Shown in pieces: positions 1-10,720 of a stretch of 10,720 bases of DNA. Within the stretch, counting starts at the first letter, position 1. Each line of letters opens with the position of its first letter. The DNA lies in assembly GCA_003345595.1 (NCBI GenBank), contig PRDI01000113.1, forward strand, positions 1 to 10,720, read 5' to 3'. The translations under genes were made by a program, and so were the position numbers. The notes beneath the pieces were generated by a model, which was given only the letters and a program-made list of their open reading frames with translations, was not told where the DNA came from and did no database searches. The DNA is from Candidatus Thorarchaeota archaeon (GTDB lineage: Archaea > Asgardarchaeota > Thorarchaeia > Thorarchaeales > Thorarchaeaceae).

Positions 1-1109
1 TCAACGCAAGAGGGACATGCCGAGATGACCCACTGGGCTTGTGTCTGCTCGATGTCTTTGAGCTTGAGCTTGTTTATGTTGAGAGCGAATTCGTTGTCAA
101 AGGCTCTAAGAACTCCACCTGAACCGCAACAGAAGCAGTTGTTCCTGTTATGGGGCAGCTCCTCGAGCGTCACTCCGGGCAGGTTCTCAAGCACCTTTCT
201 AGGTTCCTCGAAGAACCCCTCGTTTCGGCCAGCGTCACAGGGATCGTGAAACGTGACCGTAATGTCGAGTGGAGTCTGCAGGTTGTTCAGTTTACCACTG
301 TCACACAAACGAGCGAGGTAGGCTGCGCCATACTCCACTTCGAACGGATGCTCAATGTCAAGCAACTCATGGTACTCATGAGCCCACATCCTGTAGCAGC
401 CTGGACAGTTGGTTATCACTCGCTCCACCCCAAGCTGCTTGTACATCTCTATATTGTGCTCTGCCAGAGTCTTTGCAGTAGCGAAGTCACCGGTCATGAT
501 CATTGGAGCGCCACAGCACCACTCGTCTTGTCCAAGTACGGTGTACTCCTCACCGATTCTGTCCATCACAAGTGTCGTCGCAATTGTCGCTTGGATTGGG
601 ACTGCCTTGTAGGACGAAGAACATCCGAAGAAGAATGCTGTCTTTGCCTTTCGACCCACACTCCTTTGAAGAGAGTCCTCATCTGGGTGCCAGTATGACC
701 AGCCGTCTATTCTGTCGGTCTGCGCTTGGCCTTGGATATTGCTGGTCTTCAGCAGTGTGTCCCTTGCGGCCTCGAGGTTCTTGGGCCATAGCCCTCTTCT
801 GTAGAACTCCGCGCGCATCAGCTGGTACAGCTTGACAAACGGTATGTCCACTTGACAGACCTCTTCACAGCCACCGCACAGTGTACAGCCAAAGATACCG
901 TCCCTGAGTCCTTCGAGACCTTCAGAGGGCTTGAGTCGCCCCTGCATCAATGCCCGGGCTATGATCATCTTGCCCTTCCCAGAATAGCTGTCGAGGCGCT
1001 TCACCTTGTAGGTGGGACACGATCCATGCCCGACCTGACAGAAGCTGCACTGCGCACAGGTGAAGGGCATATTCTGGAGTCCATGTTTTTCAAGTAGAGG
1101 GAATCGCAT
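1..1109 (-). CDS. HdrD/GlcF-like Fe-S oxidoreductase (2x[4Fe-4S] ferredoxin domain + two CCG domains), 3' end truncated by window edge
   Basis: Manual translation of the reverse strand from ATG at 1109 is open to base 1: MRFPLLEKHGLQNMPFTCAQCSFCQVGHGSCPTY...CTLCGGCEEVCQVDIP...FFFGCSSS-x-EWCCGAP-x-TNCPGC...FHDPCDAGR-x-CFCCGSGG-x-SACPSCV. Both CCG domains fit C-x34/35-CC-x35/36-CxxC. GAGAGG SD-like sequence lies upstream. Absent from the ORF track because there is no stop codon in the window. Confidence 0.93.
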   Translation of the reverse strand, partial: MRFPLLEKHGLQNMPFTCAQCSFCQVGHGSCPTYKVKRLDSYSGKGKMIIARALMQGRLKPSEGLEGLRDGIFGCTLCGGCEEVCQVDIPFVKLYQLMRAEFYRRGLWPKNLEAARDTLLKTSNIQGQAQTDRIDGWSYWHPDEDSLQRSVGRKAKTAFFFGCSSSYKAVPIQATIATTLVMDRIGEEYTVLGQDEWCCGAPMIMTGDFATAKTLAEHNIEMYKQLGVERVITNCPGCYRMWAHEYHELLDIEHPFEVEYGAAYLARLCDSGKLNNLQTPLDITVTFHDPCDAGRNEGFFEEPRKVLENLPGVTLEELPHNRNNCFCCGSGGVLRAFDNEFALNINKLKLKDIEQTQAQWVISACPSCV

Positions 1110-1328: not shown

Positions 1329-3269
1329 ATGACACTGAAAAGCGAGAACGCAGCCGAACTCGCTGGGATCTTCGGCAACCGGCTCATCACTGCCAAACAT
1401 GAGCTGATTGTCCACTCGATGGACGTGGGGTCACTGCCGAAGCAAGTCGGCTGGCTCATGAACACAAACCCTGACGCAATGGTGCAGCCCGAGTCCGCTC
1501 AAGAGGTCAAATTGCTCTACGACTTCGCCCGTTCTCACAAGATTCCCGTCGTTCCTCGAGGGGCAGGGACCTCAGGCTACGGAGGCGCCATACCAAGGAA
1601 AGGCGGTATCGTTGTCGACATGCGCAGGATGGACCAGGTTCTGAGTGTCGACAAGGAATCGATGACTGCCGTGGTAGAGCCGGGCATCTCATGGGCAAAC
1701 CTGCAGTTGGAGCTGAACCGTCAAGGGCTAGATCTGAGATGCTATCCGTCGTCAGCAGTGTCTGCGACTATCGGAGGTTGGGTAGCGCAGGGCGGCGATG
1801 GGATTGGCTCGCTCAAGTATGGCAACATTAACAACAACGTAGTCGAACTCGAAGTTGTTCTGCCCGAAGGAAAGACAATCGTGACCAGAGACACGGACTT
1901 GTTCTGTGACACAGAGGGGATTCTAGGCATAGTCACGAAGGTCACACTCAAGGTCAAACCTCTGGTCCCAATCCGCTCCATTGTTGTGAGCTTCCCCGAG
2001 AACTACCTGATGGTCTTCGCGATTGAGAGGATAATGAAGGACGGACCCCTGCCGTTCACCATGAGATTCGAAGAGAGCAAGTATACAGACCTCAAGAAGA
2101 GGATCTGGGAGGGCAAGGAGCCATTCCCGTTCCCAGTGCATCACTGCGTCCTCTTGGTCGCCTATGAAGGGACAGACGAGGAAATTGCCCAGGGCTTCGA
2201 GATAGTCCGGGAAGTGTGTAAGGAACTGAAGGGGGCTGTTTATGATGAAAATGTCGCGCTCCACGAGTGGGAAGACAGGTTCTATCCCATGAGGATAAAG
2301 AAGATTGGCCCCACACTCGTTGTTGGTCAGGCATTTGCTCCGATAGAGAGCCTAGAAGCCATTCTAGACGATTTTCAGTTCGAACAAGCCTCTGCTCATG
2401 CGGGAATCGACGGTTACGTGACATCGAAGAATGGTGTCACAATGATGGGCTACTTCCTTGAGGACGAGCGGCGGCATTTCTTCATGCTGTCTTGGTCGCA
2501 GAGTTTTGTGATCTTCAAGATTGCACAGCGGCACGGAGGGCACCCTCATTCAACAGGAATCTGGCTGGCGAACTACGCACCGATATACTTCGGCACACGT
2601 CGCCTTGGCAGGATCAGAGCCGCCAAGCTGAAACTGGACCCGCTTGAGATCTCCAACCCGGGCAAGGTGTTTGCATACTGGCTTCCGCTGATTCTCAGAA
2701 TCGGCAAATACTTCATGTGGTTGGGATTCGATCTGTTCCGGAACGGGTTCGGTAGGATTGCGCCCATACTCTTGAAGTGGCTGCAGAACCTCCCGCCGGT
2801 AAAGTGGATTCTTCGTTGGGGTCGTGCGCACAGTCCTTGGCCGGTCCAATACGGTCTTGGGTGTTGCATGGTCGATGGTGCAGCTGCGGTCGCATCTCGT
2901 TGGGACCTTGAGAGGTTCGGCATGCTTCCACTGTTTGGCCCCCGTCAGTGTGATGTGCTGTGGGTATCGGGTTCCCTGACGAAGAAGATGGCTCCTCGTC
3001 TGCGGAGGATCTACGAGCAGATGCCCGACCCCAAGTTCGTCATTTCATTCGGACAGTGTGCTGCAAGCGGAGGTCTCTTCTGGGATGGATACTCACTCGT
3101 GACTCCTCCCGACAAGGTGGTGCCAATCGATGTGTATCTGCCAGGCTGTCCTCCGAAGCCTTCAGACTTCGTTAGGGCACACTTGATTCTTCAGAACAAG
3201 ATTCGTGCAGGGACAACCCACTGGCAGCTGAAACATGAGAATCAAGATGCGATGGGCGTGATAAAGTAG
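1329..3269 (+). CDS. Fusion protein: N-terminal FAD-binding oxidoreductase (GlcD/Dld, VAO/PCMH flavoprotein family) + C-terminal NADH:quinone oxidoreductase subunit B-like (NuoB) domain
   Basis: aa1-446: VPRGAGTSGYGG, VEPGI, TIGGWVAQGG..KYG, TEGILGIVT and the family-terminal NPGK. aa~493-630: WGRAHSPWPVQYGLGCC, DLERFG..GPRQCD, KMAPRLRRIYEQMPDPKFVISFGQCAASGG, DVYLPGCPP (Cys512, 513, 577, 607 = N2 ligand pattern). Single uninterrupted frame; GGAGA lies upstream of the ATG. Confidence 0.93.
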   Translation: MTLKSENAAELAGIFGNRLITAKHELIVHSMDVGSLPKQVGWLMNTNPDAMVQPESAQEVKLLYDFARSHKIPVVPRGAGTSGYGGAIPRKGGIVVDMRRMDQVLSVDKESMTAVVEPGISWANLQLELNRQGLDLRCYPSSAVSATIGGWVAQGGDGIGSLKYGNINNNVVELEVVLPEGKTIVTRDTDLFCDTEGILGIVTKVTLKVKPLVPIRSIVVSFPENYLMVFAIERIMKDGPLPFTMRFEESKYTDLKKRIWEGKEPFPFPVHHCVLLVAYEGTDEEIAQGFEIVREVCKELKGAVYDENVALHEWEDRFYPMRIKKIGPTLVVGQAFAPIESLEAILDDFQFEQASAHAGIDGYVTSKNGVTMMGYFLEDERRHFFMLSWSQSFVIFKIAQRHGGHPHSTGIWLANYAPIYFGTRRLGRIRAAKLKLDPLEISNPGKVFAYWLPLILRIGKYFMWLGFDLFRNGFGRIAPILLKWLQNLPPVKWILRWGRAHSPWPVQYGLGCCMVDGAAAVASRWDLERFGMLPLFGPRQCDVLWVSGSLTKKMAPRLRRIYEQMPDPKFVISFGQCAASGGLFWDGYSLVTPPDKVVPIDVYLPGCPPKPSDFVRAHLILQNKIRAGTTHWQLKHENQDAMGVIK

Positions 3270-3985: not shown

Positions 3986-4780
3986 ATGGAGTGGAAGCCG
4001 ATGGCGTCTGTTAGTATCAAGCATCTTGTGAAGAGTTACGGCAGCTTCGTTGCTGTGAATGATTTGTCATTTGACGTACGGGAGGGTGAAGTCTATGGAC
4101 TCCTTGGACCCAATGGTGCTGGCAAATCGACGACCCTGAAGGTCCTGATGGGCCTGCTGGATCCAGACTCGGGGACTTCCACCGTCTTCGGCATGGACTC
4201 TGGCGCGAGTCCTGTCGAGGTGAAGAAAAGAGTCGGCTATGTCCCTGAGGAAATCTCACTTTACGAGTCGCTCACGGCGAGAGAGCTCATTGACTTTGTC
4301 GCTTCCATAAGAGGGCTCAGCCCGGAAACTGCAGCAAGGCGTGCGTCCGAAATGTCCAAGGCACTGGACTTCGTCCAACAGTATGACAAGACCGTTGTGA
4401 CTCTCTCACATGGGAACAAGCAGAAACTGATGTTGATCATAGCCATGCTTCATGCCCCAGACTTGCTCATACTTGACGAGCCTTTCACCGGACTTGACGT
4501 CCGGACTGCTCGGATTATGAAGGATGTCATCAAGATCCATGTGGAAGGAGGCGGTTCTGCACTACTCAGTACGCACATAATGGAGATGGCTGAGGGACTG
4601 TGCAATAGGGTAGGAATCATCGATCATGGAGTCATGGTCGCTGAGGGCACGCTGGACGAGCTGGGCAGGCAGGCGCAGATTGAGGGCGCCACACTTGAGA
4701 AACTGTTCCTCAAACTCACTGGAGCGGAGGGAGAGGTAGAAGAGGGCGTGGAAACTCTCCGGGAGGCTTTGGGTGATTGA
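3986..4780 (+). CDS. ABC transporter ATP-binding protein (ABC-2/CcmA-like exporter ATPase); true start may be ATG 4001
   Basis: Walker A GPNGAGKST, Q-loop region GYVPE, signature LSHGNKQK, Walker B LLILDEP, H-loop STH, C-terminal TLEKLFLKLT. Confidence 0.95.
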   Translation: MEWKPMASVSIKHLVKSYGSFVAVNDLSFDVREGEVYGLLGPNGAGKSTTLKVLMGLLDPDSGTSTVFGMDSGASPVEVKKRVGYVPEEISLYESLTARELIDFVASIRGLSPETAARRASEMSKALDFVQQYDKTVVTLSHGNKQKLMLIIAMLHAPDLLILDEPFTGLDVRTARIMKDVIKIHVEGGGSALLSTHIMEMAEGLCNRVGIIDHGVMVAEGTLDELGRQAQIEGATLEKLFLKLTGAEGEVEEGVETLREALGD

Positions 4781-6420
4781 ATCTCGGTAAGAAGTGGCAG
4801 ATAGCTGGAGCCGTTTCAACGGAGTTGCGGTTTCAGGGCTACCTTGACTCCAACCCAATGGGACTCTCTCGCATCAAAGAGAACCCAGAGCGGATTATGA
4901 GGCAGATGAAGAGTGCAAATACGATGAGCGGACTGGTTTCAGCACTGTTCATTTCGACCCTGGGAATCTCGTCTATTGCGGCGGCTTACATCAACCTAGG
5001 CAGTGGACCATTCCACCTTCGTATGGCTCTATCCATTTCCATGTTCCTTGGTCTTACATTCATACTTATGTTCTTCATGAACCTCATGGCGACGACAGGA
5101 TTCTTCGGTGCGAGTGCCATGCGCCTCTTGACCATCCTGCCTTTCTCACGAAGCGACCTCGAAAACATCATCCTTCTGGCATTTGGCAGAGTCTTCATTG
5201 CTCCGGCTGTGATAATCAATGTGGTCTTCCCTCTCATCTGCTTCGTGCTGTTGGGACCGCTTATTGGTCTAGTTGCACTAGCGGGTTGTCTGATGACCAC
5301 GTCATTGTCCATTGGAGCACTGGTCAAGGTTTCCAAGTGGTTCTACGTGAAATCACATTCCTCAACTAATTCCAAAGCATCAACCATCATCCGTATCGCG
5401 GCAGGACTGGGAATTGTCGTTGGAATGTTCGCTGCCTATAGTATGACGGGATTCATACCGACGATCGTGCAGTTACTAGTGCAGCTGTCATCGAGCTTCG
5501 GTGAGATTGCAGTATCGATGCTTGCTGTTGTGTTTCCCTTCAGTCTTGGCATCCTCGCCGCCGCGCTCATCCCAGAAACGAGCTTTTCGTCAGTGACAGT
5601 CGCGGTTGCGGCCATCTCTTCGATGATTTATGCAGCTCTCGCGTATATTACCTACTTACGTAGTGGAAAGGCACTCAGATCAGTGGCCCTTGGAGGAGTC
5701 ACAACAAGTGGCGCCGAGATTCGACGCGACATAAGCGTTGACATTCTCAGCCCTATAAGTGCGATAATCCGGAAGGACATGAAGCTGGCTACACGTAACC
5801 TCGGGTCAATAATGATCATCGTGATGCCGCTCTTGATGGTCTTCTCAGTCTATCCTATTGTGGCTTTCACCAGTGAGGGGTTTCTGAGGAGTTCTTCAGC
5901 ACTACTTGGAACAGGATACATAACTACTTTCACGGGAATCTCTCTCATCGGGCTCTTGTCACTAGACTCTCAGGGCGCCTCCCTCCACGAGGGGCTTCCT
6001 ATAGACAGCAGAATGATACTGAGTGCAAAGGTCAGGGTGTTTGCTGTGCAGTATGCATTGGCCATGAGTGTGCTTGTGATTTGGTTTGCGCTTGCCAGCC
6101 CCATAACACTGCTTCTAGTTCTGCTGCCAATCATCCAGTTCCCCACGGCATATGCCATCGGATACCTGGTTGCCGCAACGATATATCACATCAGAGGGGG
6201 TGGCCGAGTCACCGCTGTCAACATCATAGGCGACCAAGCTATCGTTCTCCTCTCAATGGCTCTGACTGCGGCAATAGCTGGCGCTCCACTGGGAGCATAT
6301 GCACTGATTCTTCTGGCAACAAGAGGAAATCATCTCATGGCGCTTGGTATGCAGCTTGCGGTTGTCCTGCTCGAATTCCTGTTTGCGCGGCAGATTACTC
6401 CTAGGTTGCTTAAGGGTTAA
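4777..6420 (+). CDS. ABC exporter permease (multi-pass membrane protein)
   Basis: TTG start overlaps the ATPase stop (TTGA). More than 10 hydrophobic segments in two halves, each with an LP motif (LLTILPFSR; LHEGLPIDSR), and IIRKDMKLATRN at the start of the second half, typical of ABC-2-associated permeases. Confidence 0.85.
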   Translation: MNLGKKWQIAGAVSTELRFQGYLDSNPMGLSRIKENPERIMRQMKSANTMSGLVSALFISTLGISSIAAAYINLGSGPFHLRMALSISMFLGLTFILMFFMNLMATTGFFGASAMRLLTILPFSRSDLENIILLAFGRVFIAPAVIINVVFPLICFVLLGPLIGLVALAGCLMTTSLSIGALVKVSKWFYVKSHSSTNSKASTIIRIAAGLGIVVGMFAAYSMTGFIPTIVQLLVQLSSSFGEIAVSMLAVVFPFSLGILAAALIPETSFSSVTVAVAAISSMIYAALAYITYLRSGKALRSVALGGVTTSGAEIRRDISVDILSPISAIIRKDMKLATRNLGSIMIIVMPLLMVFSVYPIVAFTSEGFLRSSSALLGTGYITTFTGISLIGLLSLDSQGASLHEGLPIDSRMILSAKVRVFAVQYALAMSVLVIWFALASPITLLLVLLPIIQFPTAYAIGYLVAATIYHIRGGGRVTAVNIIGDQAIVLLSMALTAAIAGAPLGAYALILLATRGNHLMALGMQLAVVLLEFLFARQITPRLLKG

Positions 6421-7073: not shown

Positions 7074-7514
7074 ATGAGGTTGTTCATTGACTTCGTCCCT
7101 GTGTTGGTGTGGGCCCTCCTCGCCATTGCACTCGTTGCCATAATGCTCTTGGCATCGTGGGTGTTGCGGCCTCACATCCTTCAGAACTCGGACAAGACCT
7201 CCTCATACGAGTGCGGAGAGGAGCCGGTGGGCACTGCCGCCGTTGCATTTCCGTACAGCTACTTCCTCTATACAGTCCTGTTTGTCATCGTCGACGTAAT
7301 GGGTGCATTTCTTTGGCTATTGTCAGTATCTCCGCTCAGGATTTCTGAAGTTATCGTCTGGCAGACATTTGTCTTCGTGGTGCTCATAGTCCTCGGGATT
7401 GCGTTTGCCCTACACATGCTGCCTCAGACGTTGCTCGACGGAAAAGAAACCCTCAGACTGTACCGTGAGAGCAAAGCGGCCCGTGAACAGCACGATTCGG
7501 GGGTGCAGGTGTGA
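7074..7514 (+). CDS. nuoA: NADH:quinone oxidoreductase subunit A-like
   Basis: Three TM helices, loop KTSSYECGEEPVG, YFLYTVLFVIVDV. Start set at ATG 7074 (TTG 7080 also possible). The 6843 start in the ORF track overlaps the divergent gene and promoter. Confidence 0.9.
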   Translation: MRLFIDFVPVLVWALLAIALVAIMLLASWVLRPHILQNSDKTSSYECGEEPVGTAAVAFPYSYFLYTVLFVIVDVMGAFLWLLSVSPLRISEVIVWQTFVFVVLIVLGIAFALHMLPQTLLDGKETLRLYRESKAAREQHDSGVQV

Positions 7515-8170
7515 TGTTGATGCAGGAATTCGAGGCACTGTTTGAAGAGGTCGAGTTCGTTGTGATTGCAGTCGTCGTGCTGCTGCTAGCATATCTTGCA
7601 CTCGAGCACAGAGAGATCGTCTACTCCGTTTTCTTCTTTGGATTCATGGCCGCTAGTGTAGCGGGCTTCTACCTTCTCTTGGAAGCACCTTTCATCGCCG
7701 GTATGCAGATTGCAGTGTACACCGGCGGAATAAGCGCTCTGATCATCTTCGGTGTTCTTCTTCTGCCGCGGGCGCAGGGCTCTTCATTAGAGGTACTACA
7801 GACCCCGCGAATGCGAAGGATAGGCATGATTCTCTCCGCGACTGTCATGACACTCTCAGCAGTCCTCGCTCTGGTTTTTCCTTGGTCTCAGTCCTTTCCG
7901 GCTGACCGTCCGCCTATCGCTCAAGACCTTGCAGGTCTGGCAGCTTGGCTCTGGGGAGAGCATGGGATCTATGTCCAGCTTGTTGCGCTCATGATGCTGA
8001 CTGCCGTCATCGGGTCTGTCGCAATCCTGAAGATGGAGAAGACAGAGAAGCTCAGTCCTCTGAAGGACCGACCCGGACTCGGGTCGCGGGGCAAGGAGAA
8101 CGAAGGCGCTTCCGAAACTAAGGCCCATGATGAGGAGCACCAAGATGCCAAGGAGGCCGGCACCCAATGA
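7511..8170 (+). CDS. nuoJ: NADH:quinone oxidoreductase subunit J-like
   Basis: IVYSVFF..AGFYLLLEAPFIAGMQIAVYTGGISALIIFGVLL signature, five TM helices, GTGA overlap with nuoA. Confidence 0.92.
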   Translation: MMLMQEFEALFEEVEFVVIAVVVLLLAYLALEHREIVYSVFFFGFMAASVAGFYLLLEAPFIAGMQIAVYTGGISALIIFGVLLLPRAQGSSLEVLQTPRMRRIGMILSATVMTLSAVLALVFPWSQSFPADRPPIAQDLAGLAAWLWGEHGIYVQLVALMMLTAVIGSVAILKMEKTEKLSPLKDRPGLGSRGKENEGASETKAHDEEHQDAKEAGTQ

Positions 8171-8487
8171 TACCATTGAGCTGGTACTTGGTCGTGGCCT
8201 TCGTGATGATAGGGCTGGGCGCCTACGGTATGGTGACGAAGAGAAACCTGATTCGAATTCTCATCGGTGCGGAGATAATGGGCAATGGCGTTAACATAGC
8301 GCTGGTCGCCTTCTCGCTTTACAATCCGGTCTTCTCATTCACTGGTCAGGGACTGATTATCCTCGTGATATCAGTGACTGCGGCACATACTGCATTGGCG
8401 TTGGTGTTGATGCTCATGTATCAGACCCGGTACTCGACCGTGGACCTCGGCGAGCCTGTCACTGTGGAGGCACGGAAGAGTGACTGA
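8167..8487 (+). CDS. nuoK: NADH:quinone oxidoreductase subunit K-like
   Basis: GLGAYGMVTKRNLIRILIGAEIMGNGVNIALVAF, GQ motif, three TM helices, ATGA overlap with nuoJ. Confidence 0.92.
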   Translation: MIPLSWYLVVAFVMIGLGAYGMVTKRNLIRILIGAEIMGNGVNIALVAFSLYNPVFSFTGQGLIILVISVTAAHTALALVLMLMYQTRYSTVDLGEPVTVEARKSD

Positions 8488-9019
8488 GCCAACGACAGTC
8501 CCTCAAGGGATGTCCCCGTCAACACTGGCAAAGCACGTGATTGACAGGCACCCGGACGTTTCTGCGAAGGAGCCAGAAGGGAACCGGATTGAGCTGATTG
8601 TGCCGGCTGAGAGGGTTCGTGATGTTGTTGGAATGATAAGCGAGCTTGTGCCCGACGCTCTTCCAGAGTCTCTGTTTGGCGTAGATCTCGGCAATGACCG
8701 ATACGAGGTGATGTACTTCTTCTGGTCACACTCGAACTTGATGTTGTGTCAGCTGCGTGTCACACTTGAGGGCGCCAGTCCAGAGGTTGACTCTGTCTGG
8801 GACATTTTCCCGGGGATGGAGTGGCACGAACGAGAGACCCATGAGATGTTCGGAATCGGGTTCAAGGGTAATCCCGACCTAAGACTGCTCCTGCTTCCCG
8901 ATGAGCTTGACGGCAAGTATCCGCTCAGGAAGAGCTTCAAGACCGACAGGAGTCGACTTGCTGAGTCAGGACTGGCAGAGACCAGACCTACCTCAAAGGA
9001 GAGTGAGACCTCAGGTTGA
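8480..9019 (+). CDS. nuoC: NADH:quinone oxidoreductase subunit C-like
   Basis: GVD..RYEVMY, VDSVWDIFPGMEWHERETHEMFGIGFKGNPDLRLLLLP..GKYPLRKSF signature; GTG start overlaps nuoK by 8 nt. Confidence 0.93.
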   Translation: MTEPTTVPQGMSPSTLAKHVIDRHPDVSAKEPEGNRIELIVPAERVRDVVGMISELVPDALPESLFGVDLGNDRYEVMYFFWSHSNLMLCQLRVTLEGASPEVDSVWDIFPGMEWHERETHEMFGIGFKGNPDLRLLLLPDELDGKYPLRKSFKTDRSRLAESGLAETRPTSKESETSG

Positions 9020-10152
9020 GTGGCAACATTCTCGACGAGGCTGTGGAGGTATGGTTCGGTCCTCAGCACGTTTCAGCTCACGGGTGGGCCACAAAGCTGA
9101 CCATCGTTGGTGACTTCATCGTTGAATGTGACCCTAACGCAGGCTACTTCCATCGGTCAGCAGAGAAGTGTCTTGAGTTCCGCGACTTCCGTCAAGGTGC
9201 GCTCATCATGGAAAGGCTCTGCATGCTTGAAGCATTCCTCGCGGAGTACCCTTACGTGAAGGCGGTTGAGAAGATCGCTGCGCTGGAGGTACCCGAGAGG
9301 GCCAAGGTCATGAGGACAATCATGATGGAGGCCAGCAGGATTCATAGCCTTCAGTTCTGGTGGGGACAATTCGCGGCGGAGCTTGGTCTTTTCGCAATGC
9401 TGCTATGGCCTTGGGTGGACCGTGAGTACTTCCTAGACTCCTTTGAGGAACTGACTGGCTCCAGACATGCTGTGTCGTACAACACCCCGGGAGGAGTCAA
9501 GTATGATTTCACCGAAAAGTCGGTGAAGATGCTCCTGCGTGCACTGGACAGAATCGAGTATCGAATACCTACGTTCCGTGACATGATTTTGAAAAGCCCG
9601 ACTTTCAAGTTGCGGACGAGGAACGTGGGTACATTCACTGCCGAGCAGGGACTGAAATGGGGTCTAAGCGGACCAAACATCAAAGCATGCGGCATTCCTA
9701 TGGACCTTCGCAAGGACGACCCTGACCCCGACCTTGCATACAACATGTGTGACTGGGAGGTCCCGACCACTCAGAGTGAGGAACATCCTGGGGGAAGTGA
9801 TGCCTACGACAGGATGGTCCAGAGATTCAGGGAGATTGAAACATCAATCAGCATTATCAGGCAACTGCTCCCTCAGGTGCCTGAAGGGCCAATAGTCGAT
9901 CCCAAGGCAAGGGCCAAGACCAACAGACTCCCGGCAGGAGAGGCGTATGGCCGCGTCGAGGGCACACGTGGGATAACGACACTCTGGCTGAAGACTGCGG
10001 ACAAGGCACAGACTCCCTATCGAGCCAAGATAAGGGGACCATGCTTCTCCTCATACTATTCTCTCAAGCATCTTGTTCCGGGCTCCACATTTGCAGACTT
10101 CATTGTGATATTCGGAAGCTTGGATCCATATCCTGGGTGGTGGGACAGATGA
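9016..10152 (+). CDS. nuoD: NADH:quinone oxidoreductase subunit D-like / MBS(MbxL)-like large subunit without NiFe site
   Basis: FGPQHVSAHG, GYFHRSAEK, EVPERAK..RTIMMEASRI, FEELTGSR...PGGV, GEAYGRVEGTRG, PYRAKIRGP, terminal SLDPYPGWWDR. No CxxC pairs. TTGA overlap with nuoC. Confidence 0.92.
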   Translation: MSGNILDEAVEVWFGPQHVSAHGWATKLTIVGDFIVECDPNAGYFHRSAEKCLEFRDFRQGALIMERLCMLEAFLAEYPYVKAVEKIAALEVPERAKVMRTIMMEASRIHSLQFWWGQFAAELGLFAMLLWPWVDREYFLDSFEELTGSRHAVSYNTPGGVKYDFTEKSVKMLLRALDRIEYRIPTFRDMILKSPTFKLRTRNVGTFTAEQGLKWGLSGPNIKACGIPMDLRKDDPDPDLAYNMCDWEVPTTQSEEHPGGSDAYDRMVQRFREIETSISIIRQLLPQVPEGPIVDPKARAKTNRLPAGEAYGRVEGTRGITTLWLKTADKAQTPYRAKIRGPCFSSYYSLKHLVPGSTFADFIVIFGSLDPYPGWWDR

Positions 10153-10720
10153 TGGGAGGCGGCATCTTGCTCCAGATCGACTTCATTGCATGGCTCAGGG
10201 GGATACCGGATTGGCTGTATGGTGTGATCAGATGGATCTATGGAATCATCTACGCCCTGTTTACTTGGGTATGGGGCCTGTTCGTCTGGATCTGGGCAGT
10301 CGTCATAGACAGCTTTTGGTTCCTGTTCAAGGCAATCCTGTTTCCCGGCCTGATCTTTGTGGTGTTGGGAATCATATTCGCAGTCTGGTTCACTCGAAAG
10401 ACATGGGGACGCGTACAGGCAAGGCGTGGACCGTTCCACATAGGAAAGTACGGAGGCCTTCAGCTCTTCGCGGATGCAATCAAGCTTGTAGCGAAGGAAA
10501 CGATAATTCCCGACAAGGCTAAGCGGTGGATGTACAGGGTGCTTCCGTCCCTTCTCCTCATTGCGGTTCTGATCCCATTTGCGTTCATACCTTGGGACAA
10601 CAACTCGTTCATTGCCGACCTGTCTGTGAGCCTTGTGCTGACCTTTGCATTCCTCACAGTCGTGCCTGTGGTTTCAGTGCTGGCAGGTTGGACCAGTGGA
10701 TCGAAGTACACTCTCATTGG
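10149..10720 (+). CDS. nuoH: NADH:quinone oxidoreductase subunit H-like, truncated by window edge
   Basis: Manual translation is open to the end: ...FPGLIF..VWFTRKTWGRVQARRGPFHIGKYGGLQLFADAIKLVAKETIIP..FAFIPW..ADLSVS..LAGWTSGSKYTLIG. Start is ATG 10149 (ATGA overlap) or TTG 10167 (GGAGG at 10155-10159). Not in the ORF track. Confidence 0.93.
   Translation, partial: MMGGGILLQIDFIAWLRGIPDWLYGVIRWIYGIIYALFTWVWGLFVWIWAVVIDSFWFLFKAILFPGLIFVVLGIIFAVWFTRKTWGRVQARRGPFHIGKYGGLQLFADAIKLVAKETIIPDKAKRWMYRVLPSLLLIAVLIPFAFIPWDNNSFIADLSVSLVLTFAFLTVVPVVSVLAGWTSGSKYTLI
10191..10307 (+). repeat. Degenerate 7-aa (21-nt) Trp repeat in the NuoH N-terminal extension
   Basis: WLRGIPD / WLYGVIR / WIYGIIY / (ALFT) / WVWGLFV / WIWAVVI. 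Confidence 0.6.

Follow-up and report, generated by a model that had tools for sequence, protein, structure and literature searches.

The window analysed here, a stretch of 10,720 bases that is the entire contig C113 (PRDI01000113.1) of a Candidatus Thorarchaeota archaeon, encodes the NuoD-like, substrate-site subunit of a complex I homologue, and the catalytic pocket of this protein fits no known class. Judged by motif, score and tree, the protein is not a hydrogenase, not a canonical NuoD, not FpoD and not MbsL, in agreement with an earlier note on the same DNA in which NuoD was said to match no known class. The pocket is a conserved state under strong purifying selection, and is the product of neither chance nor decay. 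We consider it somewhat probable that it is a variant working site for a prenylated quinone-like carrier, with Tyr372 and the His22/Glu122 pair doing the work of Tyr87, His38 and Asp139 of complex I (Thermus Nqo4 numbering). The gene is the sole PF00346 gene of its source genome (G000; 2.73 Mb, 83% complete). Labels of Thor-, Sif-, Hermod- and Lokiarchaeota are borne by homologues of the window's proteins.

Pocket residues were assigned through phmmer (HMMER) alignments to solved chains, and the segments concerned are located in the table. In the alignment to Nqo4 (2fug_4), both histidines of the beta1-beta2 loop are retained (H34 and H38 correspond to H18 and H22 of the window protein), and the acid partner of H38 is present as E122 at the D139 position. 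The RMDYLHS segment of Nqo4 falls on RLCMLEA of the L1 region, which places M85, D86 and Y87 on L68, C69 and M70. Along the rest of the pocket T135, L143 and F146 correspond to Q118, F126 and L129, R350 and D401 to R318 and D370, and V403, M404, D406 and V407 to Y372, P373, W375 and W376. The four positions that hold the NiFe ligands of hydrogenases are occupied by C69 (Cys1), E72 (Cys2), Y372 (Cys3) and W375 (Cys4), and Cys remains only at 69. In the alignment to MbsL (6u8y_L), RICVPE lies on RLCMLE, pairing Cys (C85) with Cys and Glu with Glu, and the Cys of SLDNCPP (C385) lies on Y372. The motifs read in the earlier note (GPQHVSAHG, ERLCMLEA and DPYPGWWDR) are present in the translation of 9052-10152 and in the open reading frame at 9016-10152, and each residue change claimed there (an MbsL-like CxxE with C69, Tyr at the C-terminal Cys site, Met at the quinone Tyr site, both His kept) was recovered by phmmer. 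The predicted NuoD fold has an AlphaFold2 (AF2) pLDDT of 94.8, and Foldseek against the PDB returned only complex I 49-kDa chains (TM ~0.9), a match without power to separate the readings of the site weighed below.

Across about 60 clusters of the clade (72-100% identity, all labelled Thor-, Sif-, Hermod- or Lokiarchaeota), the pocket motifs are letter-for-letter identical. Invariant positions make up 24 of the 32 in the pocket and 144 of the 378 overall (hypergeometric P = 1e-5, 58 clusters). H18, H22, C69, E72, Y372 and W376 occur in 58/58 clusters, position 70 is Met in 56 of the 58 and Leu in the other two, and E122 is present in 57/57; Glu in this last column is also found in 13/121 canonical NuoD proteins, that is, inside canonical variation. 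The pocket combination Cys-Glu-Tyr-Trp-Trp was found in no other group among 270 relatives. In a set of 211 relatives, an aromatic residue at 372 never occurs together with Tyr at 70 (0/123), and it is present in 27 of the 88 Tyr-less sequences, in three separate lineages. This exclusion fits one side chain occupying the space of the other, and is a hint rather than a test because it represents only three evolutionary events. Other sequences without the quinone Tyr were also seen: P0172 has C-M-x-E and D-I-Y-P-G and lacks the beta1-beta2 His, and a five-member clade (P0138, P0140, P0186, P0194, P0251) has F or W at the Nqo4 V403 position and GPQHxx-SGH loops. These may represent convergent remodelling of the same site.

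The window protein does not reach the NCBIfam NuoD equivalogs (316 vs 360 bits for NF004739, 265 vs 459 for TIGR01962, 260 vs 522 for NF008974) or the FpoD model NF040602 (246 vs 600 bits). A scan of 1.84 billion representatives placed the nearest sequences outside the clade at 50% and 41% identity, followed by a broad plateau at <=38%. For phylogenetic placement 219 relatives were sorted by motif (NiFe, Tyr-bearing, two-Cys, other); tree tips were identified by motif, and clades were anchored through PDB searches rather than named reference sequences. FastTree divides these relatives in two (support 98), with the Tyr-bearing sequences on one side and the hydrogenases, the two-Cys proteins and the window clade on the other. 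An IQ-TREE LG+C20 posterior mean site frequency (PMSF) tree from a quick search over 102 rows recovers a Tyr-bearing clade of 51 rows (SH-aLRT 95) with the window clade outside it, and a separate 65-row LG+F+G4 tree with 1000 ultrafast bootstraps likewise excludes the window clade from the Tyr clade (92/97 and 93.8/93, SH-aLRT/UFBoot). In the phylogeny that the earlier note had called for, then, NuoD is not nested in a characterised quinone- or phenazine-reducing clade.

Asgard archaea commonly possess group 4 hydrogenases (10.1101/2024.07.04.601786), and the window protein's N-terminal part gives a weak PF00374 match (3e-5, below the cut-off), but NiFe hydrogenase activity is barely conceivable here and was rejected: E72, Y372 and W375 replace three of the four NiFe-ligating Cys of the hydrogenase motifs RxCGxC and DPCxxCxxR/H in every member of the clade, and the NiFe-motif rows form one separate clade, with 100% support, that excludes the window protein. 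The earlier statement that this is not a hydrogenase holds because these three cysteines are missing.

The sister clade (~50% identity; NCBI label Heimdallarchaeota) joins the Thor clade at 100/100 in the LG+F+G4 tree. Its members carry S-M-L-E and D-A-Y, lack the W-W pair and have an unfused NuoB. Because the sister clade has the M/E/Y residues with Ser at 69, Met70, Glu72 and Tyr372 are older than the Cys/Ser difference and the Trp pair, and because it keeps Y372 but not the Cys, the constant feature is Tyr rather than Cys. The nearest outside clade consists of two-Cys NuoD-like proteins of other Asgard archaea (P0069/P0122; G026, G112), loosely an "Ehr / Mbx-like" grade, at 41% identity; their union with the Thor and sister clades is also supported at 100/100 (SH-aLRT 100, UFBoot 100). 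These proteins share with the window system both beta1-beta2 His and an operon that runs J-K-(B)-C-D-H-I, with four antiporter-like genes in addition, but have Cys at 69 and 372, Phe at 70 and a free-standing nuoB in the operon with a C-x-x-C-C motif. Probably, Cys372 changed to Tyr in a two-Cys ancestor. The Ehr large subunit (Marreiros 2013), defined negatively as group-4-like, without the NiFe Cys and not canonical complex I, is a loose fit and was compared by definition only. The sister genome G025 (L023:8313-10093, L049:1507-3392) also encodes a second, orphan nuoD copy adjoining a CBS-domain gene. Its only close NuoB is an unfused protein of 186 aa, 65% identical to the Thor NuoB domain and encoded away from the B-less nuo operon (L026), beside a gene whose product resembles HypD by eye alone.

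NuoH, NuoB and NuoD together form the carrier tunnel, and NuoB carries the N2 cluster adjoining the NuoD pocket. On alignment scores, NuoB and NuoH of this complex are of complex-I type. The NuoB domain passes the nuoB_fam model (177 bits, cut-off 142.7) and scores 153 bits against Nqo6, vs 112 against MbsJ and 101 against MbhJ; all four cluster Cys, the tandem pair included, align with those of Nqo6. A full-length NuoH orthologue (G236) matches E. coli NuoH at 176 bits and Nqo8/NdhA at 147-162, vs 42-45 for MbsM/MbhM. The Cys doublet of NuoB is a signature of quinone-type reactivity, alongside Y87/F146/D401 and the H38/D139 pair of NuoD, and Mbx and Sulfolobus NuoD have none of these NuoD signature residues (PMC4758237). 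In the window complex the His/acid pair, the D401 equivalent and the Cys doublet are present and the Tyr is absent, a mosaic that does not appear in the list of that study. FpoD, of the F420H2:methanophenazine oxidoreductase, likewise belongs to an archaeal complex-I homologue without NuoEFG and with a tandem-Cys NuoB homologue, and its system reduces a prenylated non-quinone carrier (PMC4758237). However, Fpo has Y87 and lacks H38 and D139 (PMC4758237), the opposite of the pattern in the window NuoD.

Set against Nqo4/NuoD/NDUFS2 and NDH-1 NdhH, the window protein has the same fold, both beta1-beta2 His, an acid partner for H38 (as Glu) and the R350 and D401 equivalents, and the complex shares with complex I the tandem-Cys N2 subunit NuoB, a complex-I-type NuoH and an 11-subunit-style operon without NuoEFG. 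It differs in having Met for Y87, Cys for D86 and Tyr/Trp/Trp for V403/D406/V407, in lying outside the Tyr-bearing clade, in a NuoB encoded outside the operon and fused to a flavoprotein, and in four antiporter-like subunits rather than three. The fourth is an additional NuoM/MrpD-like gene between nuoI and nuoL, where standard complex I has one fewer (G000:C93; L021:9432-16323); L026 of the sister clade and L024 and L025 of the two-Cys relatives likewise encode four such subunits.

MbsL of P. furiosus (6U8Y) is the best PDB match of the window protein and the only full-length one in a single stretch (1.3e-54), it shares the Cys-x-x-Glu of L1, and it too is without the quinone Tyr. These likenesses could point to MBS-like chemistry, in which the proximal iron-sulfur cluster, lying in a hydrophobic chamber, would itself reduce polysulfide or another form of sulfur. 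What makes the MBS proximal cluster catalytic is a single non-cysteinyl iron, created by the displacement of MbsJ C25, and MbsL can do without C85/C385 (PMC7684303); the window NuoB, unlike MbsJ, has the full tandem-Cys form. In addition, C385 is replaced by Tyr, the H38 equivalent that MbsL lacks is present, NuoH is not MbsM-like (42 bits) and there is no Mrp-type module. Window NuoD scores 189 bits against MbsL and 186 against Nqo4, and lies outside the Mbs/Mbx clade, a separate lineage whose anchor (P0073) scores 375 bits against MbsL. We consider sulfur reduction of this kind very improbable.

Under the explanation that we favour, a working site for a prenylated quinone-like carrier, the complex would be an Asgard-specific complex-I-type ion pump composed of NuoA, J, K, C, D, H and I and four antiporter-like subunits, with a flavoprotein contributing NuoB as its C-terminal domain. 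Electrons, presumably supplied by ferredoxin via NuoI or by the fused flavoenzyme, would flow to the complex-I-type N2 cluster of NuoB and, if this direction is correct, on to the carrier. The carrier head group would be protonated by the His22/Glu122 pair and, in place of Tyr87, by Tyr372, which would occupy a position that once held a NiFe ligand, where the same chamber ends, together with Cys69, Glu72 and Trp375, the Trp pair forming an aromatic wall. In MBS the chamber ends where complex I has its quinone head-group site (PMC7684303). Because of this, and because the former NiFe-ligand positions converge in all solved homologues, the side chains of C69, E72, Y372 and W375 should face the head-group site beside H22. 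We infer that Y372 reaches this site and supplies the hydroxyl that Y87 supplies in complex I; replacement of the quinone Tyr by a C-terminal Tyr, a possibility raised in the earlier note, is our preferred reading of the residues. The bulky Y372, W375 and W376 could nevertheless fill the chamber rather than line it.

A MenA-family prenyltransferase gene (TIGR00751, 115-121 bits, cut-off 102) is linked to the complex. In three genera (G005, G128, G075) the order is nuoD-C-K-J-A, a membrane protein gene, the fusion of a flavin adenine dinucleotide (FAD) domain to NuoB and a divergent HdrD-like gene, followed by the convergent MenA-family gene and by genes for a polyprenyl synthase (PF00348) and for a member of the geranylgeranyl-reductase (GGR) family (TIGR02032, 230 vs 158.8). 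The MenA-family gene stands directly after the HdrD-like gene in 5/5 loci read (L046-L048 among them), with the polyprenyl synthase gene next in 4/5, and the GGR gene is conserved in the three loci compared. In the family as a whole the MenA-family gene is present in 64/86 genomes; it shares a contig with nuoD, at a distance of 6-34 kb, in 28 genomes from 11 genera, the window's genus included. Within that genus, in G116, it lies 10 kb from nuoD and directly adjoins the HdrD-like gene's 3' end, and G155 has the polyprenyl synthase, MenA-family and HdrD-like genes in a row. It was not found in the source genome G000, an absence best explained by an assembly break because C113 ends inside the HdrD-like gene, where the MenA-family gene adjoins in its own genus.

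Several results weigh against a quinone-like carrier. Matches to MenD and MenB are far below cut-off in G000, G236, G005, G075 and G128, and MqnA/D was not found in these genomes or in G016, in a search that covered three marker families of two known pathways in metagenome-assembled genomes (MAGs), three of them 97-98% complete. A check for quinone biosynthesis genes was proposed in the earlier note: relatives have the MenA-family, polyprenyl-synthase and GGR genes, and the MenD/MenB/MqnA/D searches found no head-group pathway. The MenA-family gene is also not exclusive to the complex, since three Thor genera without the complex, and with true NiFe group 4 hydrogenases only, carry it at 40-54% identity. 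As for a quinol-using partner, COX1 was found in 0/5 genomes and NrfD in 1/5, which leaves the flavoprotein/HdrD-like pair of the locus itself as the only conserved candidate partner of the carrier. CCG proteins (GlcF, GlpC, SdhE) commonly work at the membrane with quinones.

Two of the Thor-family genera without the complex have hydrogenase-type loci that may replace it, with a large subunit ending in DPCMSCTDR in G131 (g11, L053) and a small subunit with GGCNGCD in G027 (g4, L052). A heme O synthase-like protein is encoded in G075 (TIGR01473 214 bits, cut-off 210), and a UbiA-family gene of G005 covers the TIGR01473 profile to an equal extent at 151.6 bits (loci L027:1417-2364 and L028:1408-2346); both adjoin a gene for a membrane protein of 417-467 aa, and no COX1 was found in G075 or G005.

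The head-group result bears on what the carrier might be. As a special case of the favoured explanation, it could be an undescribed prenylated redox lipid rather than menaquinone, with the Cys-Glu-Tyr-Trp-Trp pocket adapted to its head group. Of the MenA models, the MenA-family enzyme reaches the cut-off of the most permissive one and of none that is stricter, searches of genomes as much as 98% complete did not recover MenD, MenB or MqnA/D, and the pocket combination is unique among the 270 relatives. Against this, cells in sediments could scavenge 1,4-dihydroxy-2-naphthoate (DHNA) or a precursor like it, and the genomes are MAGs in which only the three marker families were covered. We regard a new lipid as distinctly improbable. 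A bolder proposal, also rather unlikely, is that Tyr372, Cys69, Glu72, the His22/Glu122 pair and the Trp-Trp wall make up a new proton-coupled reduction site for such a lipid, its tail made by the MenA-family, polyprenyl synthase and GGR enzymes, so that pump, flavoenzyme and HdrD-like protein would constitute a self-contained respiratory unit of the membrane, specific to Thor-type and related Asgard archaea.

The chief rival holds that the pocket is closed by its aromatics and kept for conformational coupling, with electrons entering or leaving N2 via the fused flavoprotein and the HdrD/GlcF-like protein, in exchange with a soluble compound, for example a disulfide or 2-hydroxy/2-oxo acid. 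It draws on the encoding of NuoB solely as an FAD-oxidase fusion with the HdrD-like gene adjoining, on the three bulky aromatics in place of small residues at 372, 375 and 376, and on the lack, in the searches above, of a naphthoquinone head-group pathway and of a conserved quinol oxidase or NrfD partner. An Fpo-like plus HdrD model reportedly proposed for Methanomassiliicoccales resembles it. A mere plug, however, would not need the invariant protic residues H22, E122, C69, E72 and Y372, NuoH is a full complex-I-type tunnel subunit, and in the sister clade the same M/E/Y pocket occurs although NuoB is unfused and the W-W pair is missing. The MenA-family gene, moreover, is closely linked to the locus in many genomes, and polyprenyl-synthase and GGR genes stand beside it in the loci read. 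We therefore think a closed pocket unlikely on the whole: the complex-I-type NuoB and NuoH, the His/acid pair and the linkage of the MenA-family gene and its neighbours favour a site that works on a lipophilic prenylated carrier rather than one that is bypassed. Of the two functions suggested in the earlier note, bypass by the fused flavoprotein is accordingly disfavoured, and a non-standard substrate keeps some plausibility, since the searches brought up no pathway for a naphthoquinone head group.

Asgard energy-metabolism papers annotate this complex generically (PMC9723677, PMC8163825), and reconstructions of Thor-, Sif- and related Asgard archaea describe a generic "Nuo without EFG" that passes electrons to menaquinone (e.g. 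PMC9723677). Other Asgard complexes discussed elsewhere carry NiFe sites (PMC11291895; 10.1101/2024.07.04.601786), and our literature searches found no description of the present pocket. The presumed menaquinone site is without the one residue considered indispensable for reducing quinones, although its conservation is that of an active site and it has a genetic link to the synthesis of a carrier tail. Should Tyr372 do the work of the lost Tyr, the protein would be a natural experiment on rebuilding the complex I quinone site from old NiFe-ligand positions, and would also join Mbx/Mbs-type enzymes to complex I as a missing intermediate. A new carrier would alter current views of how the archaeal relatives of eukaryotes conserve energy at their membranes.

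Features of the window, with positions counted from its first base and pocket segments of NuoD listed beneath their gene.
Feature	Position	Strand	Match or remarks
HdrD/GlcF-like CCG iron-sulfur protein	3..1109	-	PF02754 1.5e-33; 3' end truncated by contig end
GlcD-type FAD domain and hydrophobic linker	1329..2765	+	PF01565 3e-41, PF02913 1e-11; fused 5' of NuoB
NuoB domain	2766..3269	+	PF01058; C-terminus of the FAD-oxidase fusion (1329-3269); motif GCC...GQCA..GG...GCPP
Small membrane protein gene			Between the FAD-NuoB fusion and the ABC ATPase gene in the gene list
ABC ATPase and 547-aa permease-like gene	3986-6420		Between the FAD-NuoB fusion and nuoA
nuoA	7074..7514	+	PF00507
nuoJ	7511..8170	+	PF00499
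nuoK	8167..8487	+	PF00420
nuoC	8480..9019	+	PF00329
nuoD-like gene, substrate-site subunit	9016..10152	+	PF00346 4e-60; 378 aa and stop
Beta1-beta2 loop FGPQHVSAHGW, aa 14-24	9055..9087	+	H18, H22
L1 region ERLCMLEA, aa 66-73	9211..9234	+	C69 (nt 9220-9222), M70, E72
E122	9379..9381	+	Nqo4 D139 equivalent, partner of H38 (alignment to 2fug_4)
C-terminal DPYPGWWDR, aa 370-378	10123..10149	+	Y372, W375, W376
nuoH, 5' part	10149..10720	+	Open reading frame; continues past contig end

The remainder of the system lies on other contigs or was read in relatives. Contig C93 of the source genome (L004-L008) carries the four antiporter-like genes, and a relative with the locus on a single contig (G236) has the operon A-J-K-C-D-H-I followed by four antiporter-like genes (518, 756, 514 and 505 aa). 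NuoB is encoded only as the FAD-oxidase fusion, adjoining the HdrD-like gene. The region at 3986-6420 is a variable insertion slot, almost empty in G005 and G236 and occupied by different genes in G128. Window DNA was matched in wetland metagenome runs from two studies, with no RNA run among the matches listed. In the window's own genus, locus L062 (G155:C5:82001-100000) has the menA-like, FAD-NuoB and nuoD genes all in pieces (frameshift or in-frame stop), so that either the assembly is poor there or the system as a whole is decaying in this lineage. Between the HdrD-like and MenA-family genes of G236 (L022:7611-17789) lie two more FAD_binding_4/CCG pairs, a DUF7530-PNPOx protein and an amine-oxidase-type flavoprotein, so that a whole island of flavin/CCG oxidoreductases adjoins the pump in this genome.

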